Counted from the first letter of the stretch, positions 1 to 39,422 are shown. The stretch is DNA of 64,000 nucleotides from Methanobacteriota archaeon (GCA_014240385.1 JAAZXA010000068.1:29090-93089), one strand, 5' to 3'. A program made the numbers and translations. The notes: generated from the sequence alone by a model not told the origin.

Positions 1-152
1 TTTCCAGTTATGGTCGGTAGGTCTACTCGTTCCAACGGAGTCCATTCTGGTTTCCTGCGCTGTAATTCATTGATGAGGTGTTCATCTGAGTATCTTTTCA
101 ATCTCTTCCGGTCACCCTGACTGAGACCTCTAATTTTGTGCTGTTTAGTCAT
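1..152 (-). CDS. hypothetical protein, N-terminal part (continues past window start)
   Basis: ATG (cat 150-152) directly preceded on coding strand by AACCGCTC; reads MTKQHKIRGLSQGDRKRL...; open to window edge. Confidence 0.5.
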   Translation of the reverse strand, partial: MTKQHKIRGLSQGDRKRLKRYSDEHLINELQRRKPEWTPLERVDLPTITG

Positions 153-163
153 GAGCGGTTCAA

Positions 164-379
164 TCATTCAGGGGAGATGGTCTTTGCCCAGCGGATTAGT
201 GCAAGTTCTCTTGCAACTTTGTCGCTGAGTAACATGCACCCAATGTATTGGTCTAGGGCTTGAAATTCCTCTTTTGCTTTTTCACAAAATAATTCATTTT
301 CCTTATTGCCTGCACAGATCGTTCTTATTTTGTGTAGGCTGTAGCGTAAATCAATCACTTCTTCCTCGATTTCCTTCAT
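164..379 (-). CDS. hypothetical protein, 71 aa
   Basis: ACCGCTC-ATG start (cat 377-379); track ORF 164..625 over-extended, motif visible as ..KPLM KEIEEEV.. Confidence 0.6.
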   Translation of the reverse strand: MKEIEEEVIDLRYSLHKIRTICAGNKENELFCEKAKEEFQALDQYIGCMLLSDKVARELALIRWAKTISPE

Positions 380-387
380 GAGCGGTT

Positions 388-1104
388 TCAATTGGGTTTC
401 ATTTGAATCCAATTGTAGAGTCTCAAGAACTCGTACATCACATTTCCAGTTGGGTTTTCTGGATCGTGTGTTGAGGTTCCTTTGATTCCAAAATATTTCT
501 TCACATCCTTCACCCTCCAATTTGAGTTTGGTTGGATATGTGGCCCACCTGGACGGATTTCCTCCGTTTTGGGGTCGTAGCCAGTCCATAGGGACAGGTC
601 TCGGTGACTGATTATGAGGTTCCACATGGCTCCCCCCATTGGGTTGCCATTGACGGAAAGGATGTCTTCGCCGTTTTGACGGGCTATCATTTCCTTTTCG
701 AACTGTTCCATGAAAGGGCTTACGCGCATTTCATGGGTTAGGGGTGTTGCATCATCTTCTTCTCGGGGATCTTTCCCGTTAAAGTGATATTCAATGTGTT
801 CATCCGTTAGTTCGTCGTAGAAATCGTAGGTTCTCCATGTTGCTGTAATTACCAGCCCCATGAACCACCCATCTTTTTCGTCATCATAACATTCATGTTC
901 CCACCAAGTAATGAGATTCTTCCGATACAGACAACTTAGAATTGTGTCCATCTGTTCTTCGGTTTTGTTCATATTGGTAGGCATATCGTGACCGAAGACA
1001 TCGGAGTAATAGGGTTCTCCGATGCCCCAGTTGTACCATCCTGTCTCCTTGAGCCAATCTAGTGTTTCTTTTTCTGCTTCCGTAAGGTGCATTTTGTTTT
1101 TCAT
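388..1104 (-). CDS. hypothetical protein, 238 aa
   Basis: ACCGCTC-ATG start at 1102-1104 (..NKPLM KNKMHLTEAEK.. in track ORF 388..1329); stop 8 nt before next start. Confidence 0.6.
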   Translation of the reverse strand: MKNKMHLTEAEKETLDWLKETGWYNWGIGEPYYSDVFGHDMPTNMNKTEEQMDTILSCLYRKNLITWWEHECYDDEKDGWFMGLVITATWRTYDFYDELTDEHIEYHFNGKDPREEDDATPLTHEMRVSPFMEQFEKEMIARQNGEDILSVNGNPMGGAMWNLIISHRDLSLWTGYDPKTEEIRPGGPHIQPNSNWRVKDVKKYFGIKGTSTHDPENPTGNVMYEFLRLYNWIQMKPN

Positions 1105-1231
1105 GAGCGGTTTGTTGATAGACCGGCTACCTTTGTTGAAGGTTGCCGGATATAATGTCACCTCCAAGTGAAGGGGGGCAGGGGGATTTCCGGTGAGGCT
1201 TGGGTGGCCTCCCTCTACCCCCTGTCTCCAC

Positions 1232-1429
1232 TTATTCTTCATAGCGTTCTTCATAATCATGAATCTTCCAAGAGCCAACGGTATTTCCGTTGATATCTTT
1301 GATTCTTCCTTCCCCGTGTCCGTTGGCAATCATATCGCAGATGTCTGCGAAAATGCGCCTTGTCTCTGGTAAAGGGGTTTCATTGAACGCTGCGTTGTCT
1401 ATGTTGTATTCGATTTCAATTTTCGACAT
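1232..1429 (-). CDS. hypothetical protein, 65 aa
   Basis: ACCGCTC-ATG start 1427-1429; matches track ORF. Confidence 0.55.
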   Translation of the reverse strand: MSKIEIEYNIDNAAFNETPLPETRRIFADICDMIANGHGEGRIKDINGNTVGSWKIHDYEERYEE

Positions 1430-1601
1430 GAGCGGTGGATGGTGTGTAGGTCTGACATGAAGACAAATGTTCCCATACTATCTTCAATATTTTGATTTTC
1501 ATTTCTTTCCTGATGGATCTGTTATTCTGGACATAGTCTCGAATCTCATCCCATCTGCTTTCGTTTTTCCCTAGTTTGTTTCTAGCGTGTTGTTCTAGCA
1601 T
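1416..1601 (-). CDS. hypothetical protein, 61 aa
   Basis: motif start at 1599-1601 (catgagcggatt); overlaps downstream gene by 14 nt. Confidence 0.5.
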   Translation of the reverse strand: MLEQHARNKLGKNESRWDEIRDYVQNNRSIRKEMKIKILKIVWEHLSSCQTYTPSTAHVEN

Positions 1602-1608
1602 GAGCGGA

Positions 1609-1773
1609 TTAGACATCCCAACAAAGGGGCGTTCGGTTCTCCTTTGCAATTCTCCTGCAAGTTGCACAGGGGATTTTTCCCCCGTCTTTGACTATCTTTC
1701 GTTCCTTCTTGCTAAGATATGAAGTAAACGGTTTCTCTCTGTTGCATATTGAACAGTTGTACCATCGTGGCAT
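1609..1773 (-). CDS. Zn-ribbon protein, 54 aa (CxxC...CxxC); not in ORF track
   Basis: motif start 1771-1773; MPRWYNCSICNREKPF...CATCRRIAKEN; stop TAA abuts next ACCGCTCATG. Confidence 0.5.
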   Translation of the reverse strand: MPRWYNCSICNREKPFTSYLSKKERKIVKDGGKIPCATCRRIAKENRTPLCWDV

Positions 1774-1951
1774 GAGCGGTAATGATGGATCGACTTGTCA
1801 TGAAGGAGATCGCAGCGTTTAAGGGTTGCAGACTATCCGATTGTCATAGGCTTCTCGAATAGTCGAGAGCGAATCATCTTCTTGGCCCTCCTTTCCTTGA
1901 CTTAATATCCTGCATCTTACCCAGCTACTAATTACTGAGATTACTCGCTTT

Positions 1952-1975
1952 GGTGTCGTCCAAGGATTGGACACC
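1952..1975. repeat. conserved hairpin element GGTGYCGTCCAAGGATWGGACACC, copy A
   Basis: 6-bp perfect stem GTCCAA/TTGGAC, loop GGA, extended arms; 4 copies in window; followed 30-45 nt later by start-less motif variant CTGTGAGCGG (2003). Confidence 0.7.
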
Positions 1976-2013
1976 TATTGCTTCAATCCGTTCATATTCG
2001 CTGTGAGCGGTGT

Positions 2014-2382
2014 TCAGATGTAGTCATCTGAACCTTCTTCTCTGATGCCCCATCGACCAACTTCAATCTTAATTGAAGGTAGGTAATGTTCATGGCAATT
2101 CTGTATCTCGAATGCAAGCATTCCATCGGGTTCGGAATCATAAGCACCATATTTGCGCCAGACAGACAATAATGCTCGCATTTGTGTCTGTAGGCTCTTT
2201 GCAAGAAGTATTGCATTCTCTGTGTCGATATCATATCCCAAGTTGGTGGTTGCCTCGCTGTAGGTGTCCTTCGCCATGATGGTGAAAGATTCACTCAACA
2301 TTGCTCCTACTGTTTCACAATCCATGCTTGCAGTATACAGTTGCCATGTTTGGGCATCTAGTTTACACTTGTAGTGTTTCAT
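2014..2382 (-). CDS. hypothetical protein, 122 aa
   Basis: motif start 2380-2382; matches track ORF. Confidence 0.6.
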   Translation of the reverse strand: MKHYKCKLDAQTWQLYTASMDCETVGAMLSESFTIMAKDTYSEATTNLGYDIDTENAILLAKSLQTQMRALLSVWRKYGAYDSEPDGMLAFEIQNCHEHYLPSIKIEVGRWGIREEGSDDYI

Positions 2383-2393
2383 GAGCGGTGTTG

Positions 2394-2900
2394 TTATGGT
2401 CCTTCCACATCAACTGTGTCGTTCCAAGTGCAACTGGTAATGTGGTCCCATTCAACTCTTTCAGCGTCTTCACCATCAACATTCCAGGTATGCTCCGTTA
2501 GAGCATTTCTGAAATCGTAGGATGCATACGATAGAGCGTTGTAAGCTTCTTCGGTAGCATCGCTGTTGGCTTTCACGCCTTTGGCGTTCGCATCTCCACT
2601 GCAGTACAGGCGACTTAACGCCCTGAATAGTAAGATTTCCAACGGTGATGGTGTCCAACTCATTGCTCGTTGGATCTCTTCTTCTATCTCTAACTCTGCT
2701 TCGTTGCGGCTGTGCGGTGAGCCTGTTTCGTTGTGGGCGACATGCAGTTGCCAGTCGTTGAGCGCCTCTAGCGCATCAGCGGGTCTATCTTTTTCTCCTA
2801 AGATGTCGCTTAATCTGTTCAAGGCCTCAGTCAAACTTGGAATCGTATGATTCGCAAGATGTTGTCCTGCCCTTGTGTTTAACCAATTTCTATTAGTCAT
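2394..2900 (-). CDS. hypothetical protein, 168 aa
   Basis: motif start 2898-2900 (..HMKPLM TNRNW.. in track ORF 2394..2957). Confidence 0.6.
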   Translation of the reverse strand: MTNRNWLNTRAGQHLANHTIPSLTEALNRLSDILGEKDRPADALEALNDWQLHVAHNETGSPHSRNEAELEIEEEIQRAMSWTPSPLEILLFRALSRLYCSGDANAKGVKANSDATEEAYNALSYASYDFRNALTEHTWNVDGEDAERVEWDHITSCTWNDTVDVEGP

Positions 2901-2908
2901 GAGCGGTT

Positions 2909-3856
2909 TCATGTGGGTCCATTGGATTCTCCGTATGCGCCACTTGGTAGAGTCCATCCTCCCCTGGAACGAATCAATTGTCTTTCTTCAATCCATGCCT
3001 CGACGAGGTATGTGACGCCTTCGTATGGTGTTCCTTTCTCTACCAATTCTCGGACACTCACGCCTTGCTTGATTGTAAAACCGAATTCTTCTTCGTATTT
3101 CGCAATCTTCTCCACCATTGCTGGATAGAGTTCGGCGGCTGATGCCCATTGATTCGCATTTCCGAATATGCAGGTAATGCATGACAGTCTGCCCCATCCT
3201 AGCCAGTATGCTGGATGAGCCATGATTCTGTGTTTTTCCATGATTTCCCACACTTGTTTTTCTGTCCAATCGTGAATTGGCCTCCAATGATGCACCGTTC
3301 TCAATTTTCCATGACAACGGTGATTCTCGAAGGTGTTGTAGTTGGATCGTGATTTGCTTTCTCCTGCTCTCTCACCAGTCACAACAAGGGTCTTCTTGCC
3401 CTTGAATCGTTCTTGGTTGTTGATTGCTGCGCTCATCACATCGATTTTCAAATAGGCACTGCACCATCTTACCCGCAGATCTGCGGAGACTTGTGGAAAC
3501 TTGCGCCTTGTACCATCAGGGCCTTTACCCCCTGATGAATCGATTGTTCCGTCTGGGTTCTCCCAGAACACCTTGCCTGTCGGGCTGTTATCTCGTAGCA
3601 TCTCTTGCTCGAATCCGCCATCTCTCCAACTGAAGTAGATGGGAACATTGAATTCCTTTGCGAATTCCCGACAGTAATCTTCTGTTATCGGCCAATCCAT
3701 GAATGGATCGCTTCCTGGCGCACCATCAATGAGATGGTGCCACAGTTCTATTTTCTCTTTGTCAACACCGTTGTCTAGCAGGTCAAGGAAACAAGCTGTT
3801 GAGTCCTTTCCTCCGCTAAAGGCAACGATGATGTAATCGTATTCATTTAGGTTCAT
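2909..3856 (-). CDS. PP-loop ATP pyrophosphatase (PAPS reductase / DndC / QueC-like superfamily)
   Basis: N-terminal YIIVAFSGGKDSTACFL = SGGxDS PP-loop; motif start 3854-3856; 315 aa. Confidence 0.6.
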   Translation of the reverse strand: MNLNEYDYIIVAFSGGKDSTACFLDLLDNGVDKEKIELWHHLIDGAPGSDPFMDWPITEDYCREFAKEFNVPIYFSWRDGGFEQEMLRDNSPTGKVFWENPDGTIDSSGGKGPDGTRRKFPQVSADLRVRWCSAYLKIDVMSAAINNQERFKGKKTLVVTGERAGESKSRSNYNTFENHRCHGKLRTVHHWRPIHDWTEKQVWEIMEKHRIMAHPAYWLGWGRLSCITCIFGNANQWASAAELYPAMVEKIAKYEEEFGFTIKQGVSVRELVEKGTPYEGVTYLVEAWIEERQLIRSRGGWTLPSGAYGESNGPT

Positions 3857-3892
3857 GAGCGGTTCATTCCGACAAGGGAATTTCCTTGTTGG

Positions 3893-4126
3893 TTATTGTA
3901 GTTGTGAAACTGTTGTTACTGCGCGTTCGCCTTTAATCACCTTCTGTAAAGCATGAAGGCTGATTACAAGGGGGATGTAGGTTTGCCCATCCCCTGTTGT
4001 GTATGTTTCACAGTTTCCCATTTCGTTTACATTGATGGAGATCTTGATTGCTCCACCTTGGTTGCTTCTTCGGGCGTAGCCCACTAGCCTAGCGGGTGCC
4101 GTATCATCTTTTTCTTCAATAGACAT
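3893..4126 (-). CDS. hypothetical protein, 77 aa
   Basis: motif start 4124-4126. Confidence 0.5.
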   Translation of the reverse strand: MSIEEKDDTAPARLVGYARRSNQGGAIKISINVNEMGNCETYTTGDGQTYIPLVISLHALQKVIKGERAVTTVSQLQ

Positions 4127-4136
4127 GAGCGGTAAA

Positions 4137-4586
4137 TCACATTTCGAATTTAGTGATGCCATCATCTTCCGATAATCTCACTTTACGGCCAATCATTGTA
4201 GCCTGTTTTCGAAGTGCTTTGATTTTAGCGTGTTGTTCTAGCAGTCCTTCTCCATCTAGCATTGCTATGATTTGGAAGGCTTTTTTGTGCGAACGAATAC
4301 TATCCAGAATATCGTCAATCTTCGACAATAGTTCCCACATCTCGGGGCTTATCGTCATCTTGACTGCAGTTCTGTAATCGTCTGCACAGAATCCCTTTCC
4401 ATTAGTTTCTCTTCCTTTGACGAAGTGTCCGTGGCCGATGTGACCGGGGACTGGGAGTTTCGCAAAAATATTCTCTCTAAGGGTTGAGTCGTTTCTGCAT
4501 ATACAGAGGGGATTAGCCCTCATTCTCTCTCTCCCGCCAATACTCCAAGAAGCGGGGGAGAACTGTAGTGTAAATTCAGTTTTCAT
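4137..4586 (-). CDS. 6-pyruvoyl-tetrahydropterin synthase / QueD-like protein (putative)
   Basis: FSPASW near N-terminus (cf. FSAAH) and PGHIGHGHFVKG (cf. PTPS/QueD NGHGHNY / RLHGHSF Zn-site motif); motif start 4584-4586. Confidence 0.4.
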   Translation of the reverse strand: MKTEFTLQFSPASWSIGGRERMRANPLCICRNDSTLRENIFAKLPVPGHIGHGHFVKGRETNGKGFCADDYRTAVKMTISPEMWELLSKIDDILDSIRSHKKAFQIIAMLDGEGLLEQHAKIKALRKQATMIGRKVRLSEDDGITKFEM

Positions 4587-4597
4587 GAGCGGTCCCT

Positions 4598-4849
4598 TTA
4601 GGCTAGGGGATTTAATCCTTCTTTCCTGATTATTTCAGTCACTTGAAATTGGTGCCGGTGTTTGGTACAGGTTTCGTTAAGAAGGGGTTCCCAATGGGGT
4701 GCTAAAAGGGCGTTTTTGTTTCCTGGACATACTCCAGTATGTCCTTTGGTAATATTCTCTAATTCTTCCTCTGTTGCCCAGCCTTCTTCGGGCCAGGTGT
4801 GCTCTGCTTTACAGAACTTGCATCGGAAGATTGCTTTTATCTCTGCCAT
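4598..4849 (-). CDS. Cys-rich Zn-binding protein, 83 aa
   Basis: CKFCKAEH...CPGN; motif start 4847-4849. Confidence 0.55.
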   Translation of the reverse strand: MAEIKAIFRCKFCKAEHTWPEEGWATEEELENITKGHTGVCPGNKNALLAPHWEPLLNETCTKHRHQFQVTEIIRKEGLNPLA

Positions 4850-4856
4850 GAGCGGT

Positions 4857-5087
4857 TCAATTTGTTACTTGCCAAATTGATTCTTTCCATCGTCGGCCTC
4901 TGTCGTAACATCTCTTTGTTTCGACCTTGACGAACTCTGGGTTCTTTCCCAAGACATTGTTCAATGTTTGGATTGAGGTTCCTTCTTTGGTATTCATATT
5001 GATGTGCTCAAGTATCTCATGTGTTGAGGCATTTCCTTTCTCTTGCACATACTCTATTGCCATTTTCTTGATTCTAATGGAGACCAT
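4857..5087 (-). CDS. hypothetical protein, 76 aa
   Basis: motif start 5085-5087 (track ORF 4857..5156 over-extended). Confidence 0.5.
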   Translation of the reverse strand: MVSIRIKKMAIEYVQEKGNASTHEILEHINMNTKEGTSIQTLNNVLGKNPEFVKVETKRCYDRGRRWKESIWQVTN

Positions 5088-5095
5088 GAGCGGTT

Positions 5096-5251
5096 CTATT
5101 CGGGCTGTAGAATTTTGTATTGTAACAGGCCCACTTTCAGGAAGTGCCTGATACAATCTGATCTAGATAACCCGTGCGTATCTGCGATTTCATCAATTTG
5201 TTTCAATTGACCTTTGCTTATTCTGAGACTCACCATCCCTTTTGTTGTCAT
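5096..5251 (-). CDS. ribbon-helix-helix (CopG/Arc-like) DNA-binding protein, 51 aa; not in ORF track
   Basis: motif start 5249-5251; MTTKGMVSLRISKGQLKQIDEIADTHGLSRSDCIRHFLKVGL shows beta-strand/helix/helix RHH pattern. Confidence 0.5.
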   Translation of the reverse strand: MTTKGMVSLRISKGQLKQIDEIADTHGLSRSDCIRHFLKVGLLQYKILQPE

Positions 5252-5260
5252 GAGCGGTGT

Positions 5261-5470
5261 TCAGGAAAAGTCTGCTCCGCAATTGTAGCATTGATCTATT
5301 CCTGTGTTTGCATGGTGGTCGCAACATTTCGGGCAGATTTCATTTTCTGCACAAGGGCAACCGTTCAAGATTCTTCGCATCTCTTTAATCCAGCAATTTA
5401 CCAAATAGCGTTGGGTTTCTGTAGTAAAGGTGTCGATGTTGTTTTCCATGTCTTCAAGTATTGTTTCCAT
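5261..5470 (-). CDS. Cys-rich protein, 69 aa
   Basis: motif start 5468-5470; CPCAENEICPKCCDHH...CYNCG. Confidence 0.5.
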   Translation of the reverse strand: METILEDMENNIDTFTTETQRYLVNCWIKEMRRILNGCPCAENEICPKCCDHHANTGIDQCYNCGADFS

Positions 5471-5478
5471 GAGCGGTT

Positions 5479-6354: not shown

Positions 6355-6361
6355 GAGCGGT

Positions 6362-6652: not shown

Positions 6653-6766
6653 GAGCGGTGTCCTCGATTATGAGGATGATTTCGGTTATTTCTCCGTTGT
6701 TGTCTCTCTTTACATCATGTGGTGTGCAAAGTCCGTATTTGGGGTGCATGTAATGCATGAGCGGTT

Positions 6767-9008: not shown

Positions 9009-9107
9009 TCAAATGATTTTTCCACATTTCTGACAAGACTGGGGGTGAACCCCTGAATGTCTAGGACATGGGTTTTCGCAAATACAATCTTCTGATTCAT
9101 CAGTCAT
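9009..9107 (-). CDS. Cys-rich micro-protein, 32 aa (not in ORF track)
   Basis: motif start 9105-9107; MTDESEDCICENPCPRHSGVHPQSCQKCGKII; stop abuts next motif. Confidence 0.3.
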   Translation of the reverse strand: MTDESEDCICENPCPRHSGVHPQSCQKCGKII

Positions 9108-11144: not shown

Positions 11145-11332
11145 GAGCGGTTAGGCCATTTACATCTCTTCCTTCTGTCCATGTTTCTCTGAACTCAAAC
11201 TCCTACCATCAGGTCGTCCGAACTGCGGATTTGCTCCTGTCTCGTTCAATGTAGGTTCTCAAGCAAAGGCCATTTTGGACTAGGTAATTATGTTCCATTG
11301 GCCGTCCCCCGGCTACTTGTTGACTTTGCGTT

Positions 11333-11356
11333 GGTGCCGTCCAAGGATAGGACACC
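11333..11356. repeat. conserved hairpin element, copy B (GGTGCCGTCCAAGGATAGGACACC)
   Basis: same element as 1952-1975; followed by CCGTGAGCGG (11375-11384) just after stop of upstream gene. Confidence 0.7.
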
Positions 11357-11405
11357 TTTTGCTTATCGTCGTATTGAGCCGTGAGCGGTTGGCCGAAGTT
11401 GATAT

Positions 11406-11702: not shown

Positions 11703-11785
11703 GAGGGGTGGGAGACAGGTGGATCCTATAGGGATGGGATGCCAACAGGAGGTTGTGAACACCTGTCCCCCGTGAGCGGTTTCTA

Positions 11786-13931: not shown

Positions 13932-14006
13932 TCATTCGTAGGCACAATCGCATGTAGGATATCCTTCATCGTCGTACTCTTCTTCGCAGATTAGGCACCA
14001 GACCAT
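13932..14006 (-). CDS. Cys-rich micro-protein, 24 aa (not in ORF track)
   Basis: motif start 14004-14006; MVWCLICEEEYDDEGYPTCDCAYE; stop abuts next ACCGCTCATG. Confidence 0.25.
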   Translation of the reverse strand: MVWCLICEEEYDDEGYPTCDCAYE

Positions 14007-14015: not shown

Positions 14016-15149
14016 TCAACTTGTCGAGACCCGATGAAAATTGGTAATCAGTCCTGCTTGAGAACTCCCTGTTCGAGCGTTCCAAGCCTTCTCTAATATC
14101 TTCTTATTCATTGAATGGTGGTAACTTGTCCTGTTCCATTGTTTCATGATGTGCTTGTAAAGCCCATCCGGGTCGTCATTGTAAGTTGAGAGTTCAAGAG
14201 CATCTTGATCCTGTTCCCAGACATTGTGTAATCCCCTGGCACTAGTTCCCCCAGCACCATCGGAACGAAGTAAATCCATCATTTCCTTGAAGGTAAATCC
14301 TGCAGCCTTACTGAATGGGTATGAATCTGTATTCCAGACCTTCTTCATGTGGTTTGCTGCCCAAGGCTTGTGTAGGTTGTTTTTCTTTCCAACTTTGATA
14401 AATCTTCCAGATTCACAATCCATAAGTTGCCGTAGCATGGCATTGAGTCTCCAACTAGTTGCATCTACGCATTTAGCACCAAGCATTGATGCTACCTTGG
14501 TTGCGTTCATTCCACCTGCGCCAAGAAGGAAGAAGTCTTTGTCTGCTTCTCTTAATTCTTGACTGGTGTTTAGAACGACATTCCAAAGTTTCGCCTTTGA
14601 GACGATGGTAGTTTCATTCTTGATGTCGGCATTTCCAATGCGATCCATTACTCTAAAAGTTGATTGAGCCAAATTACTACCGTAGCCAACCATAATGTCG
14701 TTGTCTATGTCGTATTGGTTCAAATGATGGATTGCTTCTTCTGCGTTCCTTCCGTGAATTACGGGTATTGTCTGCGGAATCTCTTCGTGCATCTCGCTAA
14801 ACCAGTCGCAACTTGTCTGTTGCCGTTCCACTACCTCATTTTCGGTGAGGCCTGTGAATCTCGGTATCGGGAAATCTGCTGCAATGATGATGTCATTGTC
14901 TTTGATTCCGATTCTCCTATGGTTTGCGACTAGATCTTCAACTTTGAATGTTGAAGCTAGTTCGGGATTCTGTAGGAAATTGAATCCTCCTGAATCCTTA
15001 GCGACTTGATGCTTTGTTGTGAACTCTTGATGGCTAAAGCCATCTCCGATTCTATCATTTATTGTGATGAGCATACTGTCGGTCAATTCCCTAACATCGT
15101 AGGGTCGTTTACCGATGTATTCTGCGTTTTCACTTGTAAAATTCTGCAT
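14016..15149 (-). CDS. tRNA-guanine transglycosylase-like protein (DpdA-like 7-deazaguanine DNA transglycosylase candidate)
   Basis: VAKDSGGFNFLQN matches TGT family DSGGFQ catalytic motif; FLLGAGG; 377 aa; motif start 15147-15149. Confidence 0.55.
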   Translation of the reverse strand: MQNFTSENAEYIGKRPYDVRELTDSMLITINDRIGDGFSHQEFTTKHQVAKDSGGFNFLQNPELASTFKVEDLVANHRRIGIKDNDIIIAADFPIPRFTGLTENEVVERQQTSCDWFSEMHEEIPQTIPVIHGRNAEEAIHHLNQYDIDNDIMVGYGSNLAQSTFRVMDRIGNADIKNETTIVSKAKLWNVVLNTSQELREADKDFFLLGAGGMNATKVASMLGAKCVDATSWRLNAMLRQLMDCESGRFIKVGKKNNLHKPWAANHMKKVWNTDSYPFSKAAGFTFKEMMDLLRSDGAGGTSARGLHNVWEQDQDALELSTYNDDPDGLYKHIMKQWNRTSYHHSMNKKILEKAWNARTGSSQAGLITNFHRVSTS

Positions 15150-26096: not shown

Positions 26097-26274
26097 GAGC
26101 GGTTCTTTTCATTCCAGCGGGGGATGTTTCGTCACCTTGAACTTGAGCCGACCCCCATCACTTGATTCTTGCCTACAAGCAGTGGGGAGGTATCTTTCAG
26201 TGGTGGGCGAGTATCGAGCCCCTTGTTTCAAAGAACCCGGTTATATCATTGGTTGTCTCCTTTCGAGTTTCTTC

Positions 26275-26298
26275 GGTGTCGTCCAAGGATTGGACACC
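26275..26298. repeat. conserved hairpin element, copy C
   Basis: GGTGTCGTCCAAGGATTGGACACC; followed by CCGTGAGCGG (26327-26336) directly after stop of gene 26343..26711. Confidence 0.7.
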
Positions 26299-26342
26299 TA
26301 CTTTCTCTACTTTGGACTGCAATAAGTCCCCGTGAGCGGTAT

Positions 26343-28443: not shown

Positions 28444-28530
28444 GAGCGGTTAATCCTCTTCGTATTCTTCGAAGATGTATTCTTCTGTTTCAATGCGTAA
28501 TATCAATGTCGGCATGAGCGGCTCAAACCA

Positions 28531-29073: not shown

Positions 29074-29310
29074 GAGCGGTTTGTACCGGCATACTCTTGC
29101 TTAGACTGTTCGCTGGACAGTTGGCCTGTGAATCTAACTGCAACACTCCGTCTTCCCGTTTCTGTCTCCGTAGATACAATTGAGGGAAGCTGCGGGTTTG
29201 TCAATTGACTCGATGGCATCGTGGCCGAAGCCGCAGGATGCCCTAAGCAGTATCTTACCGTAGGTACTTACCCGACTCGCCAATTAGGGGTCACACCATC
29301 CATGACTGTT

Positions 29311-29334
29311 GGTGCCGTCCAAGGATTGGACACC
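29311..29334. repeat. conserved hairpin element, copy D
   Basis: GGTGCCGTCCAAGGATTGGACACC; followed by TCGTGAGCGG (29369-29378) abutting stop of gene 29379..29585. Confidence 0.7.
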
Positions 29335-29378
29335 GTAAGCGTATTGGTTCTGCCCCGGTTAGGTCTGTCGTGAGCGGT

Positions 29379-30783: not shown

Positions 30784-30858
30784 TCAAATTTCGTGACAAC
30801 AAGCCATGCACTTGTTTCTGCACATGGCGTATAGTCTGCATACTCTGCATTGTTCCAT
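30784..30858 (-). CDS. Cys-rich micro-protein, 24 aa (not in ORF track)
   Basis: motif start 30856-30858; MEQCRVCRLYAMCRNKCMACCHEI (8 Cys). Confidence 0.3.
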   Translation of the reverse strand: MEQCRVCRLYAMCRNKCMACCHEI

Positions 30859-31509: not shown

Positions 31510-31581
31510 TCATTGGTTCGGGCATTTGCCGCATCCATTGTCTGGACAATCGTTGCATGTCCTTGCTTCATCTTCTTCCAT
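31510..31581 (-). CDS. Cys-rich micro-protein, 23 aa (not in ORF track)
   Basis: motif start 31579-31581; MEEDEARTCNDCPDNGCGKCPNQ. Confidence 0.3.
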   Translation of the reverse strand: MEEDEARTCNDCPDNGCGKCPNQ

Positions 31582-32667: not shown

Positions 32668-32720
32668 GAAACCAAAAAGAAAACCCAACCGCCGTTGCAG
32701 TTGGGTTTGTTTGATTTGTG
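32668..32720. terminator. bidirectional intrinsic-terminator-like hairpin
   Basis: AAACCCAACCGCCGTTGCAGTTGGGTTT stem-loop flanked by A-run on one side and T-rich run on the other; lies after stop of gene 32736..33203 (minus-strand sense); followed by start-less TTGTGAGCGGCTC. Confidence 0.5.
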
Positions 32721-32735
32721 AGCGGCTCTTATGCC

Positions 32736-33203: not shown

Positions 33204-33228
33204 GAGCGGTTCTTATCGGGTGTTTGCA

Positions 33229-33525: not shown

Positions 33526-33535
33526 GAGCGGTAAA

Positions 33536-33910: not shown

Positions 33911-33919
33911 GAGCGGTTC

Positions 33920-34651
33920 TCAGAAGTTCAACTTCGAGATTCGTCCGTGTTCATCGCATTGCTGCTTGATACGGAGCAATTCGCAGGCACCACGCCTTAT
34001 CCAAGCGTAGGCCTTCTTGCCCATACTCTCGCCATGAGGGATGTCAAGTTCACTCCACTCAGGCCAGTCCCAAGCGTCAAGTCCTTCGACTTGCGGCTTT
34101 AGGAAATCTGGTATGGTGGTTTTTCCTTGTTCATCCATAGCTGAAAGTTGGTGAGCATTCATGTGCTCCGCTACAATCCAAAGGATTGCATCGTACCCTG
34201 AAGAATCATCTCCGAGGTGTTCTAATGCTTCCTCAAGCATCTTTGCAGATGCCTTGTCGTGTCCAAATGCAGTGCTTTGTGGCGTTCCATCCGGCCATGT
34301 CTTCTTCGGGCTGTCCTTTAATGTGGACAACTTTCCAAGATCCGACCAGAAAATAGCCATCTCAAGAATGTGGTATTTACTCCACTCATTATCCATAAGG
34401 ATAACAGGCGTATCTTCCAGATGTTGAAGCATCCCGATGATGTGGTTGTAAAGCCAACCTTCCTCGTGGTGCTCGTTGTTCTGGAAACAGTAGAGCGTCT
34501 CGGTGTCAAACACCAATCCGTCAATACTTGCCTTTCCGTTCTCGAGTAAGACGATCTCAGTAGTGTGTAGGTGCTTGTTGATAGCACCAATCACTTCTTC
34601 GATTTCTGTTCTTTCAATTCTGCCCGTAGGCAGACAATTTTTTTCTAACAT
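33920..34651 (-). CDS. DEDD-family 3'-5' exonuclease-like protein
   Basis: LVFDTETLY resembles Exo I motif (FDTETTG) of DnaQ-like exonucleases; 243 aa; motif start 34649-34651. Confidence 0.4.
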   Translation of the reverse strand: MLEKNCLPTGRIERTEIEEVIGAINKHLHTTEIVLLENGKASIDGLVFDTETLYCFQNNEHHEEGWLYNHIIGMLQHLEDTPVILMDNEWSKYHILEMAIFWSDLGKLSTLKDSPKKTWPDGTPQSTAFGHDKASAKMLEEALEHLGDDSSGYDAILWIVAEHMNAHQLSAMDEQGKTTIPDFLKPQVEGLDAWDWPEWSELDIPHGESMGKKAYAWIRRGACELLRIKQQCDEHGRISKLNF

Positions 34652-34681
34652 GAGCGGTCTTTTTGCGTAGTCCTATTTGAA

Positions 34682-34882
34682 CTATGCAAGATATCCTCGT
34701 CCCATGAAATGCTTTCTACAGCCTCGAAAGCCGCACTTGTGGCATTCGCCAGGGTCGTGGGTATCTGGCTCTTGAGTTCCTTTTGGGACGAGTGGATCAT
34801 CATCATTGTGAATTGTAATGTTCTGCGTCCCGCAATGGGGGCAGTGCATTCTTGGTGGTTCGATGAATATTATCTGATTCAT
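34682..34882 (-). CDS. Zn-ribbon protein, 66 aa
   Basis: motif start 34880-34882 (MKPLM NQIIF..); CPHCG...CHKCG. Confidence 0.5.
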   Translation of the reverse strand: MNQIIFIEPPRMHCPHCGTQNITIHNDDDPLVPKGTQEPDTHDPGECHKCGFRGCRKHFMGRGYLA

Positions 34883-34890
34883 GAGCGGTT

Positions 34891-35118
34891 TCAATTCTTG
34901 ATAGGCATCAGCTTAAATCTGCAGCCTAGCATCAATTCATACATTACACCCCAATAAGGATGGGGTCTCCGTAGAGTCCACCATATATCGCAAAAGCGTT
35001 CAACCCCGACTGATTCAAGCCACTTTATTGCGGCTTTGCTGTTCTTGAATTTCGGGGATTTGAATCGGATTCTCTTTCGATCCTTGTAAAGGTGGATTGT
35101 GTATCTCTTTTCGGGCAT
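34891..35118 (-). CDS. hypothetical basic protein, 75 aa
   Basis: motif start 35116-35118 (catgagcggattt). Confidence 0.5.
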   Translation of the reverse strand: MPEKRYTIHLYKDRKRIRFKSPKFKNSKAAIKWLESVGVERFCDIWWTLRRPHPYWGVMYELMLGCRFKLMPIKN

Positions 35119-35126
35119 GAGCGGAT

Positions 35127-35408
35127 TTAATCCAGTGGATGTTCAGCCTTCGTGTTAAGGATCCATTCCAGCGTCTTGACTACGCCCCGAAGGGCATTGT
35201 AGTTTCGGACTGCTTCGCTGAATTTCTTCTCACGGGGGCTTACTCTCATCTCTTTCAGTTTATGGAGGTGGTTCAACCACCAATCCCTTCGTTCCTTCGC
35301 TTCGTGATACATTTCAATAATGTCATCCCAATTGCGATTAAAATCGAAGGGTGAACTTACTTGGGTCAGTCTGGGAGTTGTCATCATGGGTGGCGCATCA
35401 ATTCTCAT
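35127..35408 (-). CDS. hypothetical protein, 93 aa
   Basis: ATG 35406-35408 lies 9 nt downstream of start-less motif ACCGCTCAC (gtgagcggtg 35416-35425) that abuts stop of upstream gene; MRIDAPPMMTTPRL... Confidence 0.4.
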   Translation of the reverse strand: MRIDAPPMMTTPRLTQVSSPFDFNRNWDDIIEMYHEAKERRDWWLNHLHKLKEMRVSPREKKFSEAVRNYNALRGVVKTLEWILNTKAEHPLD

Positions 35409-35428
35409 ATTTGATGTGAGCGGTGTGT

Positions 35429-35842
35429 TCACGACCAGCAATTAAACTGGTCGATGCGAACACGCTTTTGGTCCTTATCGGCTCCACGCCCGATAGAATC
35501 GGGTGTGGGGACAGTCGAAACAACAGGGTAGCCATAGGCTTCTGCTGCGACTGCTGAACCAACTACAAGTACTCCTTCGGGGACAGTTGCTAGGAAAGCA
35601 AGTCCATCCTCTCGGGGTAGCTTCGTTGGTGTTACGAAATCGACATCCACTTCAACCTCAAGGTCGAGCGGGTTCCCTCCAAAATCTGCATTCAGCATAA
35701 CTCCAGAAGGCTCTACTTCGGTTTCATCCTCAAAGATGAACGAATGCCATGTTGTGCTAAGCACTTTGACTCCGTTACTCAAGGTGTAAACCATGCTGTC
35801 GTCGTATTCGTTTGTTTTCTCCATATTATTGTCTGTTGACAT
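35429..35842 (-). CDS. hypothetical protein, 137 aa
   Basis: motif start 35840-35842 (..NIPLM STDNNMEK..). Confidence 0.55.
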   Translation of the reverse strand: MSTDNNMEKTNEYDDSMVYTLSNGVKVLSTTWHSFIFEDETEVEPSGVMLNADFGGNPLDLEVEVDVDFVTPTKLPREDGLAFLATVPEGVLVVGSAVAAEAYGYPVVSTVPTPDSIGRGADKDQKRVRIDQFNCWS

Positions 35843-35865
35843 GAGCGGTATATTCCTTTCGGAAT

Positions 35866-36765
35866 TCAACTGAACACAGTCAAGAGTTCCTTCCACTCCT
35901 TTGGAGCACCCATTCTTAGCCGAATTGCCCTGTCGAGGGTTCGGAATGTAACGGCATCGCCATTGGCGTGAGTCTCTTTCAAATGTTTCAATACGCCCCT
36001 TTTGATGTTAATATCAACGCCAGGGTACATATTGGGTAGAATTGTGTTCATTCGTTCAAAAACCTCTGTAGTTGTAAGAACAACAGGGACCAACCAAGAC
36101 CTGTCGACCAGGGGTTGAGGCATTTCATGTTCCATCTTGTTTGTGATGAAGATTACCTGTCCCTTGAAATCGAACTTTCTCGGTAGTCCGTTGTTATCAG
36201 CCCATGAACTGTTCCATGAGATGACTCTTTGTCCATATGAGTCAAGTGCAGCCTTGCACAGTTCCATCATAGTCTCCCCAGACCAGATATCCACATCGTC
36301 TAGCACTAGCACTCCACCTTCTTGGCGGTCGTGCATAGCGGTGTAGACTCCGGTAGGAGCAATGTGTCCGGCAACCCAAGTGAATCCTTGCTTGCCTTTC
36401 TTGTCCTCTACGAGGTTCATTCGCTTGAGTGCTTCCTTTACCATGTGAGATTTTCCTAGTCCGCCTGTTCCACAGACGATTACTGAGGGACTAAATCTTC
36501 GAATTACCATCAACACAATTGATTCCATCATTTCGAATCTTTTGTTGACTGAGTGTTTGCTCATTTTATCGGTAATCGATTGGTTTCGCGCTTTCATTTC
36601 TCGGATTTTGGTATTTTCCTCGATTGATTGCGTTTCTGCTGTTGTTGCTGTACTTGCAATTGGTGTTACAACTTCGTTAGTCACACTTGAGGGGTTCGTA
36701 AAATTGATGTTCTCAAGTGTGCCGTTTTTGATATTTGTTTCTCCTTGCAAGTTATTCGTTTGCAT
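35866..36765 (-). CDS. P-loop ATPase (AAA-like)
   Basis: VIVCGTGGLGKSHMVKEAL Walker A and VLVLDDVDIW Walker B; 299 aa; motif start 36763-36765. Confidence 0.5.
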   Translation of the reverse strand: MQTNNLQGETNIKNGTLENINFTNPSSVTNEVVTPIASTATTAETQSIEENTKIREMKARNQSITDKMSKHSVNKRFEMMESIVLMVIRRFSPSVIVCGTGGLGKSHMVKEALKRMNLVEDKKGKQGFTWVAGHIAPTGVYTAMHDRQEGGVLVLDDVDIWSGETMMELCKAALDSYGQRVISWNSSWADNNGLPRKFDFKGQVIFITNKMEHEMPQPLVDRSWLVPVVLTTTEVFERMNTILPNMYPGVDINIKRGVLKHLKETHANGDAVTFRTLDRAIRLRMGAPKEWKELLTVFS

Positions 36766-36776
36766 GAGCGGTGTGT

Positions 36777-37151
36777 TTAGAACACGGGGCAGTCATTCCA
36801 TTCTGCCCAAAAGGCAGACGATTCATCCTTTGCCAGCACAGGGCCGACTAGGACTTTGAATATCTCAAAGCGCATTCCCTCCAATTTTAATGGCAGGGTA
36901 ACATACCTGAGTATTGGAATTGCCTCACGGCCTTCATTCAGGGTATACCTTCTTTGAATAGCCATTAGTGATGATATCAACACTCGGCCTACAACCTTAG
37001 ATGCCGATTCATCGCTGGTGCTGCTTTGATGGGCAGTCCACGCTTTCCAAATCGGGATCCATAGGTAGTCATCCGTGTGTTCATCTGGTTGTATTGACCT
37101 CAACTTAGAGAAGAGGCTGTCTGCAACCGGGTCATTTGTTTGTTCTTGCAT
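36777..37151 (-). CDS. hypothetical protein, 124 aa
   Basis: motif start 37149-37151 (MLIQPLM QEQT..). Confidence 0.5.
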   Translation of the reverse strand: MQEQTNDPVADSLFSKLRSIQPDEHTDDYLWIPIWKAWTAHQSSTSDESASKVVGRVLISSLMAIQRRYTLNEGREAIPILRYVTLPLKLEGMRFEIFKVLVGPVLAKDESSAFWAEWNDCPVF

Positions 37152-37162
37152 GAGCGGTTGGA

Positions 37163-37429
37163 TTAGCAAATTTCAAGCCATGCTTGTGTAGCCATTTCGG
37201 CTTCCTTTTTGCTAATCGCTATCCGGTTTCCACCCTTTGTGGTGGATGTGAGGACTGTTCCTCCTTTAGCCCATTCTTGGGCCTGTCTTTGTGCGTTTTT
37301 CTTGGCCTTTCGACCTCGTTTTCCATTTTCATGGATTTGTGTTGCTGTATCTTCGTAATATTGAGTCGTTCTGTTGAAATCTATTGAGCCTGTTTTGCGG
37401 CTGATTTTCCACGGAAAGATCCTAGACAT
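37163..37429 (-). CDS. basic (K/R-rich) protein, 88 aa
   Basis: variant start context CCCCTC-ATG (catgaggggtgc 37427); GKRGRKAKKNAQRQAQ. Confidence 0.45.
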   Translation of the reverse strand: MSRIFPWKISRKTGSIDFNRTTQYYEDTATQIHENGKRGRKAKKNAQRQAQEWAKGGTVLTSTTKGGNRIAISKKEAEMATQAWLEIC

Positions 37430-37449
37430 GAGGGGTGCAAAATGGGTAA

Positions 37450-37497
37450 TTCAAAACAAAACGCCCAACCGCATTGTCGCGGTTGGGCTTTTTGAAT
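37450..37497. terminator. bidirectional intrinsic-terminator-like hairpin
   Basis: GCCCAACCGCATTGTCGCGGTTGGGC stem-loop between A-run and TTTTTGAAT; shares CCCAACCGC with 32668-32720 hairpin. Confidence 0.5.
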
Positions 37498-37695
37498 ATG
37501 ACTTTGCGTGGGGGGTGCTCGAGATTTTTACTAGCCGCCTGCCTGCTGTATGGCTCTCGAGGGTCCGTGAGGACACGGCTCCTAACACAACTGATTTCCT
37601 TCTTCAAGATCCAGTTGGCCTCATCCCTGAATTAGGGATTACATTCCTCATTACCTATTGAAGCCGTTTCCGGCCTCTGCTGTAATTTTTTCGTA

Positions 37696-37777
37696 CATGT
37701 GGGGTTATCGTTATGTCCATCTCGATTCATGGCTCCATTGCCGACCTCTAATAGGCGGAGCGGGATTTTTTTCGGTG
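37696..37777. repeat. ~82-bp repeat, copy 1 (CATGTGGGGTTATCGTTATGTCCATCTCGATTCATGGCTCCATTGCCGACCTCTAATAGGCGGAGCGGGATTTTTTTCGG)
   Basis: ~97% identical to 40303-40383; upstream (minus-strand sense) of basic-protein gene 37163..37429. Confidence 0.75.
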
Positions 37778-37788
37778 TGTTGAAAGGT

Positions 37789-38067
37789 TCAACGCTTTGC
37801 CTTGAGCATTTCTAGTTGCTGCAAGTGCTGGTTGTCTCTGAGTTGTTGCGCTGCATCCTTCATAACGAGTATTGTTGTCTGGGCATTTCCAATCACTCTA
37901 TCGATTGCTGCCTTTGACGCCTCGTCAATGAGAAGTTGCTCAACGCAATTACTTGCTTCCCTTGCTATCATCTTAATCTCTGATTTTTCACAGTTTTTGA
38001 TGTTTCGGGGGCGACGGTTTCGCTGGTTTCCTTTTCCTTTTCTTGGTTTTATACATTTATCGTGCAT
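37789..38067 (-). CDS. basic protein, 92 aa
   Basis: motif start 38065-38067; KPRKGKGNQRNRRPRNIKN. Confidence 0.5.
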   Translation of the reverse strand: MHDKCIKPRKGKGNQRNRRPRNIKNCEKSEIKMIAREASNCVEQLLIDEASKAAIDRVIGNAQTTILVMKDAAQQLRDNQHLQQLEMLKAKR

Positions 38068-38090
38068 GAGCGGTTTGCTTTGGAACGGGA

Positions 38091-38124
38091 GCCCCGCTCA
38101 ATATCCGCAGATATTGGGCGGGGC
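38091..38124. terminator. 15-bp-stem hairpin (GCCCCGCTCAATATC/GATATTGGGCGGGGC)
   Basis: near-perfect inverted repeat with CGCA loop directly after stop of gene 38145..39071 and upstream of gene 37789..38067; stem contains CCGCTCA. Confidence 0.4.
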
Positions 38125-38144
38125 GTTCTAGATTTTGAACTCGT

Positions 38145-39071
38145 TCATACTCCGACGGATTTTGCTTTCTTGCTGTTTGTGATTGTTACAGCCAAGTTTG
38201 GTAATCCATCTTCATCTGTGCGTAGGTCAATGAAGTAGCCACGGATGCTTTCGTTGCAATCTAATGCTAAACGCCAGACACTTTGTTTTCCTGTTGGAGG
38301 TGCGGCAATTGGTATGCCTGCTCCCTCAACTAGGGTGTGAACAGAGTAATCAGCCTCATTCATTGGGTTTGAAGCTGCTCGTCCGGACAAGATGTAACCA
38401 GGGGTGATTCCCTGTCCATCATGGCGGGTTAGGCTCATCAAGTTGGCTGGACCGTTTAGGTCGCCAAGAAAGTTGATGAGCCCGATTCCGATTTGTCCTC
38501 GAGTAACTTTCCCATTTGATTGTGGGGTTGAGTCCTGTCCTTCCATGAAAAATGGAATAGATCTGATGCGTAGAGCACTATTGATTAGTGCAACGAATCC
38601 TTGAACCATGTTCAGACTGTTGGAGTTGTAAAGCTGCCATCTGCTGAGGCCATCCACTGATGGGGTAGGCCAGTAGTCCAATTTTTCGTGATACTCACAT
38701 TCTGCCATTCGCACGAATACCGTGTTCAGCCCGATGATTGTTGGGCTTGGTGCGGTTACGATGTCTGAGATGATTCCTGCATCTTTGAGGATGCTGAGTT
38801 CATCAACGAGGGCTTGCTTATCAAGTCCGAAGGCCAGCATGTCGCATCTGACTTCGTAGACTGGTCCGTCTCCGTCAGTATTTGGGACATAGATGAAGCG
38901 AGTTCCACCGTTTACAATGTATCGGGTGAAGTTCTTCTTTCCTTTTTGCTTGGTCTTCCTTGTGACTTCTACTCCTTCCAAGTGTTGTTCTGCTGCTTGG
39001 AGGGTATTGATTAAGTCCTCTGGGTCTATCTTTTCGTTCGTTTTGGTTTCTGTTTGCATGTTTGTTTGCAT
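38145..39071 (-). CDS. hypothetical protein, 308 aa
   Basis: motif start 39069-39071. Confidence 0.55.
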   Translation of the reverse strand: MQTNMQTETKTNEKIDPEDLINTLQAAEQHLEGVEVTRKTKQKGKKNFTRYIVNGGTRFIYVPNTDGDGPVYEVRCDMLAFGLDKQALVDELSILKDAGIISDIVTAPSPTIIGLNTVFVRMAECEYHEKLDYWPTPSVDGLSRWQLYNSNSLNMVQGFVALINSALRIRSIPFFMEGQDSTPQSNGKVTRGQIGIGLINFLGDLNGPANLMSLTRHDGQGITPGYILSGRAASNPMNEADYSVHTLVEGAGIPIAAPPTGKQSVWRLALDCNESIRGYFIDLRTDEDGLPNLAVTITNSKKAKSVGV

Positions 39072-39095
39072 GAGCGGTTGATAGTTGAGTTAAAC

Positions 39096-39422
39096 TCAAC
39101 GGTATGCACCATACTTCAAACCGGGGATTGGGTGGTTTCCGGCTCCACGACGCCTCATTGTGGCAATCATGGAATGAAGGACTTGGTTCGCACGGAACGC
39201 AAGTTCATTTGGTCCCTTTGAAGGATCCAAATTTCCTTTGAAGTCGAATGCACCTGCTTCTTGAATGTCTGTCTCGCATAGGAGGCAGAGCCATTCAGGA
39301 GCTTTTCCAATTGTTAGCACCTTGCGGTGTCCAACAGAGGAGAACTCCTCGCTGTTCAGGTTGCAGTTGCATATAGCGCATGTTCTTGTTATCAATTTCT
39401 GCTTCGTTTGTGTTTGTAGCAT
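39096..39422 (-). CDS. Zn-binding protein, 108 aa (first gene of leftward block)
   Basis: ATG 39420-39422; upstream context ACCGCAC 9 nt from ATG rather than abutting; CAICNCN...CLLCETD. Confidence 0.5.
   Translation of the reverse strand: MLQTQTKQKLITRTCAICNCNLNSEEFSSVGHRKVLTIGKAPEWLCLLCETDIQEAGAFDFKGNLDPSKGPNELAFRANQVLHSMIATMRRRGAGNHPIPGLKYGAYR

Follow-up and report, generated by a model that had tools for sequence, protein, structure and literature searches.

How are some 90 short genes, packed almost end to end on a single strand, each given a start signal? The question is raised by 64,000 nt of DNA deposited as a Methanobacteriota archaeon (GCA_014240385.1 JAAZXA010000068.1:29090-93089; the whole of this stretch is called the window), whose source is probably an uncultured marine virus with a host in the domain archaea. 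Positions 150 to 39078 of its minus strand hold a block of about 90 short genes in which the ATG stands flush after the heptamer ACCGCTC or a one-base variant of it. A first-pass annotation had described these genes as cistrons packed stop-motif-start, with no space left for individual promoters. Our analysis bears out the packing and shows that the heptamer is a trait of a whole family, spelled differently in each lineage, and that it also heads units without an ATG. We tentatively read it as part of a virus-specific promoter.

Results

A heptamer flush with ATG opens the genes of a 39-kb block

With up to one mismatch allowed, ACCGCTCATG matches the window 96 times, against 3.29 matches expected (sd 1.7; maximum 8 over 100 shuffles), and this excess rules out chance or a repeat artefact. 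Nearly all of the matches (94 of 96) fall within 150-39078 of the minus strand. Exact ACCGCTCATG occurs 82 times on the minus strand of the window and not at all on the plus strand. When each heptamer-ATG is taken as a gene start, the 39 kb contain 90 genes, 82 with the exact word and eight with one mismatch; the one-mismatch heptamers in the block are TCCGCTC, GCCGCTC, CCCGCTC, ACCCCTC and ACCACTC. The spacing between heptamer and ATG is zero at all 82 exact sites, every one of the 90 genes starts with ATG, and the region from +4 to +12 is A-rich. Coordinate 1 of the window cuts the block off.

Upstream stop codons crowd against the heptamer. For the 90 genes the stop-to-heptamer distance is 0 nt in 16 cases, 1 nt in 13, 2 nt in eight, 3 nt in eight, 4 nt in six, 5 nt in two and -1 nt in two, the last being junctions where the stop shares the first A of the heptamer. 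Tabulated over 89 junctions, the distances peak at 0 nt; the stop falls within -1 to +5 nt of the heptamer (6–12 nt before the ATG) at 54 of them and within 6–30 nt at 16 more. Gaps of 31–360 nt are found at 11 of the 89 junctions. At seven the genes overlap, so that the distance from stop to heptamer runs from -18 to -197 nt; the heptamer is retained in the long gaps and in all of the overlaps. The packing had thus been described correctly in its essentials, and the three junctions cited as examples (150-166, 1599-1611 and 2898-2911) are present in the sequence. The overlap range given earlier, 14–116 nt, covers every overlapping pair except 19760/19716.

The layout also bears on gene calling. 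CCG-CTC-ATG translates as Pro-Leu-Met, and a longest-ORF (open reading frame) rule over-extends 35 of the 90 block genes; the annotation had recognised this effect and set the number at about 45. Mini-ORFs of 21–32 aa on the minus strand (31510-31581, 30784-30858, 13932-14006, 28450-28515 and 9009-9107) have the heptamer-ATG at their start and a stop plus the next heptamer at their end, and gene callers would miss them. Beside one gene (38067), GAGCGG lies 20 nt 5' of the heptamer (window 38074-38100, minus strand) and can pair with CCGCTC; such a hairpin could mask that heptamer.

The block lacks conventional promoters and nearly all ribosome-binding and termination signals

We examined the sequence around the gene starts for any further conserved element. 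In an information profile of the 82 exact sites, no position from -50 to -13 exceeds 0.10 bit, and the weak signal at -12 to -8 consists of the stop codons. As had been claimed, there is no -10-like, -35-like or TATA-like element at a fixed distance, and a hidden promoter element is ruled out for that upstream range. The same profile shows no archaeal B recognition element (BRE)/TATA box, which would lie about 26 nt upstream, before the block genes. Sigma-70-like matches in the block are at or below shuffle level.

The Shine-Dalgarno 5-mer core is found before 2 of 90 block genes, versus 12 of 22 genes outside the block. The outside genes at 54018-63917 (minus strand; a serine recombinase, structural-like proteins and two tRNAs) carry GGAGG or GGTGA 5–9 nt before the ATG and no heptamer. 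These data suggest that the host uses the Shine-Dalgarno mechanism and that the block genes bypass it. The heptamer itself is not a Shine-Dalgarno sequence, as no heptamer is complementary to the anti-Shine-Dalgarno sequence and the spacing to ATG is zero. Pairing with a viral RNA was rejected since GAGCGGT is absent from the transcribed strand of the block and of the non-coding 39.4-42.5 kb region. We judge pairing with rRNA unlikely because the heptamers differ among related viruses from the same waters. An Rfam scan for RNA families at the junctions returned three tRNAs only.

Only two strong terminator-like hairpins occur on the sense strand of the 39-kb block, and it contains no run of six T. 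The second of these hairpins (37463-37488, minus strand) has 11 bp followed by GTTTTGTTTT, and 27 nt past it the next gene again has its heptamer, ACCCCTC-ATG at 37436. Given the missing conventional promoters, the two hairpins and the lack of T6 runs, transcriptional read-through across many genes is likely.

The heptamer is a family-wide trait with lineage-specific words

Homologues of the protein encoded at 14016-15149 led to relatives at more than 50 marine metagenome loci, a number of which lie on contigs 116–129 kb long. The same layout is present in every one of them, and the heptamer differs by lineage. ACCGCTC is the word of the window and of L001, L019, L020, L050 and L061, and a mixture of ATCGCTC, ACCGCTC and TCCGCTC is found in L010 and L049. 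Other lineages use ACTGACC (L004, L025 and L034), ACTGAAC (L008, L024 and L035), ATTGAAC together with ATTAAAC and ATTTAAC (L045, L042 and L044), or ATTTGAC/ATTTAAC (L047 and L056). All variants share a first A and a last C, followed by A. The heptamers drift among lineages one base at a time, and several words coexist in some genomes; L045, for example, has 27 copies of ATTGAAC, 13 of ATTAAAC and six of ATTTAAC.

Pooled figures come from 13 non-redundant loci with 413 exact sites and 461 junctions. Heptamer-ATG spacing is zero at the 413 sites, and the median gene length is 106 aa. The distance from stop to word is 0 in 89 of the 461 junctions, 1 in 44, 2 in 33 and -1 in 32. Among words that include TGA or TAA, up to 33 of 44 junctions have this stop as the end of the upstream gene. 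Inside the blocks the heptamer's reverse complement was observed once against 7.8 expected, a count as low as this being reached in 0.45% of permuted-word controls. We also considered contig ends as a proxy for transcript ends; ATG begins 3 of 37 whole contigs, which is too weak a signal to use.

Heptamers also head units that do not start with ATG

Of 25 sense-strand heptamers without an ATG, 17 have A as the next base. Heptamer-headed units made of a hairpin and a T-run are present in at least six lineages. In the window, one such unit (32681-32726, minus strand) consists of GCCGCTC-ACA followed by a 12-bp hairpin and a T-run within 12 nt, forming a short heptamer-to-terminator unit.

Four further minus-strand units begin with ACCGCTC-AC(G/A), their heptamers lying at 2005-2011, 11383-11389, 26334-26340 and 29372-29378 (ACG in the last). 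Each carries, 27–38 nt after the heptamer, the 24-nt element G-GTG-TCCAATCCTTGGACGRCACC (1949-1985, 11330-11366, 26272-26308 and 29308-29344, minus strand), which recurs at about 7320 in L014. The GTG of this element, which is ATG in L014, opens ORFs of 18–51 aa that are not conserved downstream, and the nearest candidate start codon of the four units is 27–38 nt from the heptamer. We rejected plain non-coding RNAs as an explanation of these units, given that their global folding is not significant (z = -0.4 to -1.4) and that the GTG/ATG opens the short ORFs. The element can form a hairpin and may be either coding or regulatory.

Other heptamers of this kind precede structured sequence. ACCGCTC-ACG is joined to a 64-nt hairpin at 11710-11780 (minus strand; z = -3.2), the 3' arm of which enters the ACCCCTC-ATG of the next gene, and the arrangement is kept in the 90%-identical relative L014. 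ACCGCTC-ACA at 35418-35424 (minus strand) heads a 292-nt stretch without a heptamer-ATG gene (folding z = -2.5), and the site is kept in L061. Just upstream of the block, an ACCGCTC-ACA unit at 41035-41270 (minus strand) includes a tRNA gene: its heptamer (41270-41264) abuts a TAA stop, and 95 nt of structured leader (z = -5.8) separate it from tRNA-Gln(CTG) at 41168-41035. The CCA of this tRNA is encoded, and an intron of 57 nt interrupts it at position 32/33, which is non-canonical. The tRNA was missed by standard ARAGORN and detected by Rfam and by ARAGORN with the intron option; its bulge-helix-bulge was judged by eye. The heptamer site of the unit is conserved in L061, where the tRNA itself was not detected.

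The heptamer is retained after both internal terminators and after untranslated gaps of 230–360 nt, in each case with no other promoter-like element. In about 3–4% of junctions it lies 40–390 nt inside the upstream ORF.

Two repeats were noted in and near this region. The 3 kb upstream of the block, which are poor in genes, contain three copies (40800-40847, 41193-41240 and 42043-42090) of a hairpin element, GGTCAGGGCCTACGGCCCCTATGACC then AATGAGGAAG...CTTCC. The other repeat, ACCGAAAAAAATCCCGCTCCGCCTATTAGAGGTCGGCAATGGAGCCATGA..., is about 75 nt long and has two minus-strand copies (about 37700-37790 and 40310-40400), one of which lies at the site where the L061 homologue of gene 40305-39841 has ACCGCTC-ATG; the repeat may therefore be an inserted mobile element.

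Candidate virus-encoded transcription components and a second motif

The plus-strand gene at 42564-43694 encodes a TFB/TFIIB-like protein with four invariant cysteines and two cyclin-like helical domains. Its match to Pfam TFIIB is weak (E = 2.6e-4). The top Foldseek matches of its AlphaFold model (pLDDT 67) are all TFIIB, archaeal TFB or Brf, the best with E = 1.7e-7, and we regard the product as a candidate viral transcription initiation factor. Homologues (45–76% identity) come from marine metagenomes only, and the gene was recovered from ACCGCTC-type relatives only. A TATA-like GTTATTTGG lies about 30 nt upstream of its ATG. Three to four tandem copies of a sequence with a TATA-like GGTATATGAATAGGCC (period about 133 nt; 42110-42555, plus strand) are located just upstream of this ORF and extend into it; a role as promoters, as decoys or as an origin is conceivable.

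Relatives encode, in addition, a protein similar to the archaeal RNA polymerase subunit Rpo1C (A''). At 824–848 aa (L004 13606-16125, minus strand; L020 13369-15915, minus strand; L063 10001-12475, plus strand) it is twice the cellular length. Its N-terminal 170 residues align with archaeal Rpo1C, beginning at the archaeal split point, and its best PDB matches are all archaeal Rpo1C (E = 3e-15). The protein may replace the host subunit. In the same-heptamer relatives L019, L020 and L063 the gene lies just past the 3' end of the block on the opposite strand; the window ends inside the block, so that synteny predicts the gene for this virus as well. The Rpo1C-like proteins vary in parallel with the heptamers (78%, 47% and 25–33% identity), as does everything else that follows the same phylogeny.

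Homologues of polymerase subunits are absent from the window. A motif scan of all loci for RNA polymerase recovered the Rpo1C-like trigger-loop segment only, and the 22 kb around the Rpo1C-like gene contain no other polymerase subunit. An exact-match walk along a 128-kb contig recovered 2.5 kb only. Over the sequence covered in this way, a complete viral RNA polymerase was rejected.

TATA-like boxes had been thought to be confined to plus-strand genes. This is roughly the case, but three ATGs on the plus strand have a different element, the 13-mer TTCAWACGRYTGA, at 17 nt upstream (44640-44652, 49740-49752 and 50417-50429). Relatives have it 16–18 nt before ATGs at L020 16681 (minus strand), L061 12146, and L063 2174 and 9202, again at genes outside the block. 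The copy at L063 2174 lies between divergent genes, ahead of the gene that opens an operon, and the Rpo1C-like genes in L004, L020 and L063 are preceded by a variant. The 13-mer is probably another promoter class that produces leaderless or short-leader mRNAs. The 3' half of the 13-mer (RYTGAMC; RYTGAAC in the window) agrees with the block heptamers of sister lineages at 6–7 of 7 positions, a resemblance that links the heptamers to a motif that is promoter-like by position. The 13-mer also shifts the likely start of an 839-aa glycosyltransferase ORF to the ATG at 44670 (MRVGFLLLGN...).

The virus and its host

Block products include three N6/N4 DNA methylases, one Dam methylase and two PAPS-reductase-like proteins. 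The remaining block proteins are almost all ORFans, and only five Pfam families were matched among 79 block proteins. Outside the block the window encodes glycosyltransferases, an Arf-like GTPase, the serine recombinase, the structural-like proteins and two tRNAs. One outside protein, starting at 50447, contains an acidic GAT/GAG repeat (D and E runs; window 50990-51170, plus strand).

The window has zero matches to GenBank phage records, as DNA or protein, and zero to GTDB genomes; tblastn of two window proteins against 50,697 GenBank phage and virus records also gave none. An archaeal host is indicated by the TFB-like protein, by the intron-bearing tRNA-Gln and by the PCNA-like clamp and Rpo1C-like protein that relatives encode. 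Two observations point the other way: one partial homologue carries a Marinimicrobia label (on a binned 3.9-kb contig), and both internal terminators have a bacterial look. Among known groups we considered the Magrovirales, viruses of marine Poseidoniales with 90–110-kb genomes, about 100 genes and no integrase (PMC12999244). Relatives of the window lie on 116–136-kb contigs, 90 genes fall within 39 kb here and a serine recombinase is present, which sets these viruses apart from the Magrovirales; the comparison rests on the published family description and the two-protein tblastn. The relatives apparently form an undescribed virus family.

Discussion

What the heptamer does can be approached from the features that are seen directly, namely the anatomy of the block, the lineage words, the missing Shine-Dalgarno and upstream elements, the units without ATG and the transcription-factor genes. 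We favour, at slightly under even confidence, the reading that the heptamer and the next A form a virus-specific initiator-type mini-promoter yielding leaderless mRNAs. A virus-reprogrammed transcription complex, composed of the host archaeal-type RNA polymerase, the viral TFB-like factor and, in relatives, the Rpo1C/A''-like subunit, would start RNA at or directly beside the A of the ATG. Each of the 90 or more small genes would be the 5'-proximal cistron of its own leaderless mRNA, translated from the 5'-terminal AUG. As the block is nearly without terminators, the transcripts would be nested and largely 3'-co-terminal. That the word is recognised on DNA, that the A is the start site and which protein reads the word are parts of this reading that we infer.

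Several links between the data argue for an initiator. The fixed spacing to ATG, combined with the variable distance to the stop, ties the signal to the start of the unit. Multisubunit polymerases follow a pyrimidine(-1)/purine(+1) start-site rule, and the invariant C|A of all variants fits it. Depletion of the antisense heptamer is expected of a signal read on double-stranded DNA, which makes it suggestive, though not decisive. The single-base drift of the words resembles that of phage-specific promoters, which co-evolve with their polymerase or factor by such steps. The missing Shine-Dalgarno sequences and the exclusive use of ATG fit the requirements of leaderless translation. Also in favour are the units without ATG, the heptamers kept after terminators and long untranslated gaps, the promoter-like position of TTCAWACGRYTGA and the viral TFB-like and Rpo1C-like genes. 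Finally, the 82 exact copies lie on one strand and in one block and other signals are used outside it, as would be the case for an initiator promoter whose start site we place from sequence.

The evidence also contains points that weigh against this promoter. Its start site at the A is taken from sequence and not from transcripts. Seven bases make a very short promoter, with nothing conserved upstream, and ACCGCTC is G+C-rich and so would be hard to melt. In some lineages the upstream gene ends with the TGA or TAA inside the heptamer, in up to the 33 of 44 junctions given above, and in all lineages the stop is at most 5 nt away in most junctions; translational coupling would account for this, but so would compaction. 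The polymerase subunit homologue is a single one in the 22 kb around it, with none in the window. The heptamer-like half of TTCAWACGRYTGA stands 13–16 nt before the ATG and is not flush with it, and the two classes can therefore not place the start site alike. Moreover, two plus-strand genes have a heptamer in their sense strand that is not conserved in L061, and the word is hence not strictly avoided elsewhere.

The same anatomy could arise if the word were read on RNA. The first-pass annotation had proposed long polycistronic transcripts with termination-coupled re-initiation or processing at every junction; read-through is likely, as noted above, and processing is a live option, whereas re-initiation does not hold as the main mechanism. 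In the processing version, which we consider unlikely but a serious contender, few promoters would give long transcripts and a virus-encoded, co-evolving endoribonuclease would cut between the C and the A, leaving monocistronic leaderless mRNAs that end in a stop plus heptamer. Lineage-specific recognition of 5–7 nt is known for MazF-type nucleases, and such cutting would suit a block nearly free of terminators; zero ATG spacing, missing Shine-Dalgarno sequences and ATG-only starts suit it equally well. It would also give the last mRNA the common 3' end, since in L019, L020 and L050 a heptamer lies between the last block gene and the terminator hairpin. Yet no nuclease-like protein was found among the 79 block proteins, most of which are ORFans, with the five Pfam families matched. 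Cleavage at the roughly 3–4% of heptamers inside upstream ORFs would truncate those ORFs without a stop, genes past the two internal terminators would need promoters of which none is visible, and a signal read on RNA does not predict the antisense depletion. The heptamers in the sense strand of two plus-strand genes count against cleavage too.

A translation-level signal on polycistronic RNA, with the ribosome starting at the adjacent AUG through re-initiation or a viral RNA-binding initiation factor, seems to us improbable. It would account for the fixed ATG spacing, for the 238 of 461 pooled junctions whose stop lies at -1 to +5 nt from the word, and for the stop embedded in the word (TGA-AC-ATG) in the ACTGAAC and ATTGAAC lineages, where the variants ATTAAAC and ATTTAAC retain an in-motif stop. 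A re-initiation signal, however, should be needed only at sites that ribosomes reach after translating an upstream ORF. The heptamer instead heads units without a flush start codon, such as the hairpin-terminator units and the tRNA 95 nt downstream of its heptamer, and is kept after 230–360-nt untranslated gaps, where no ribosome terminates; it is therefore not only a re-initiation signal. Ninety or more serial re-initiations without Shine-Dalgarno sequences would, we expect, decay to nothing. The differences between words of related viruses in the same waters make pairing with conserved rRNA unlikely, and zero spacing is incompatible with a Shine-Dalgarno-type pairing geometry. Hardly credible, in our estimation, is a DNA-level feature unrelated to expression, whether microhomology for cassette shuffling, a modification or nicking site, or a target of shut-off like that by T4 RegA/RegB. 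The ORFan-like small genes of the block, whose content varies between relatives, and the many DNA-modification genes of the virus would agree with such a role, and T4 early genes are shuffled through repeated promoter cassettes. Against it, the heptamer is always flush with an ATG or unit start, on one strand, in a position kept across lineages; the block genes would still need an initiation signal, and no other is present. Shut-off could supplement the other models but not substitute for them.

There are precedents for short promoters that are specific to a virus and stop at the start site, as there are for leaderless mRNAs produced by punctuation in mitochondria, and an initiator-type heptamer can be compared with both. 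The poxvirus late promoter TAAATG is an initiator fused to the start codon and is used by a virus-specific transcription apparatus. As in the block, the ATG belongs to the motif; unlike the block, poxviruses are eukaryotic and cytoplasmic, form poly(A) leaders by slippage, have upstream A/T-rich elements and lack stop-motif-start packing. The yeast mitochondrial nonanucleotide promoter, ATATAAGTA(+1), and the T7-group promoters use bases directly upstream of +1, and T7-group promoters, like the heptamers, vary between related phages, where they co-evolve with the polymerase. These promoters differ from the heptamers in serving single-subunit polymerases and in numbering tens of copies, not one per gene. 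In animal mitochondria polycistronic RNA is cut at tRNA-punctuated junctions into leaderless mRNAs beginning with AUG. The cleavage model has its analogue here, except that the mitochondrial marks are whole tRNAs, processed by RNase P and RNase Z, rather than a 7-nt word.

Translational coupling in bacteria and archaea involves overlaps (ATGA, TAATG), often with a Shine-Dalgarno sequence, and no lineage-specific heptamer. Stops and starts a few bases apart and a short conserved junction word are common to the block, to such coupling and to the gene-end/gene-start signals of Mononegavirales; the latter, unlike the heptamer, lie on an RNA template and are read by an RNA-dependent polymerase. Archaeal promoters have a BRE/TATA at about -26, produce leaderless mRNAs and start at a pyrimidine(-1)/purine(+1) pair. 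The leaderless outcome, the archaeal-type machinery and the pyrimidine/purine start would be shared with the heptamer units, but the box is absent before the block genes, TATA or the 13-mer being found only before some genes outside the block.

Close precedents are late promoters of jumbo-phage non-virion RNA polymerases, the phiKZ promoter TATG, in which G is the start site, and the AR9 promoter AACA-N6-TA/G (PMC5312081). As is proposed for the heptamer, these motifs are very short, specific to the virus and bounded by the transcription start, without a -35/-10 or TATA element; they are present in more than 100 copies per genome and are read by a virus-specified multisubunit polymerase (PMC5312081). 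The earlier argument that the junctions leave no room for promoters presupposes that the heptamer is not itself one, and initiator promoters of 4–9 nt ending at the start site are on record (PMC5312081). AR9 transcripts differ in having leaders of 26–491 nt and are not leaderless, and the motif is neither flush with the ATG nor at every gene. Both phages are bacterial and encode complete split beta/beta' polymerases, unlike the TFB-like factor and single Rpo1C-like subunit seen here.

In searches of the full-text literature neither these heptamers nor this virus group turned up, and there was no heptamer flush against essentially every gene of a block of 39 kb or more, no such word that differs between sister lineages, and no virus that combines such a layout with TFB-like and Rpo1C-like genes of archaeal type. 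Taken as a whole, and with confidence somewhat below half, we propose that an undescribed family of 116–136-kb marine archaeal viruses remodels the host polymerase with its TFB-like and Rpo1C/A''-like proteins to recognise a TATA-less 7-nt initiator flush on every early gene, giving more than 100 leaderless mRNAs from a drifting code, or else that the same code is read on RNA by a heptamer-specific nuclease.

The general view is that viruses of archaea depend on the BRE/TATA promoters of their hosts. The layout supplies an exact rule for calling gene starts, down to mini-genes of 21–32 aa bounded by heptamers on both sides, and the lineage variants are a natural mutational series for the recognition of a 7-nt word. 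If the promoter reading is true, it would be an archaeal-domain counterpart of the takeover of promoter specificity by T7, phiKZ and poxviruses, and, whether the word is read on DNA or on RNA, a promoter or punctuation code specific to the virus would be known from archaeal viruses for the first time.

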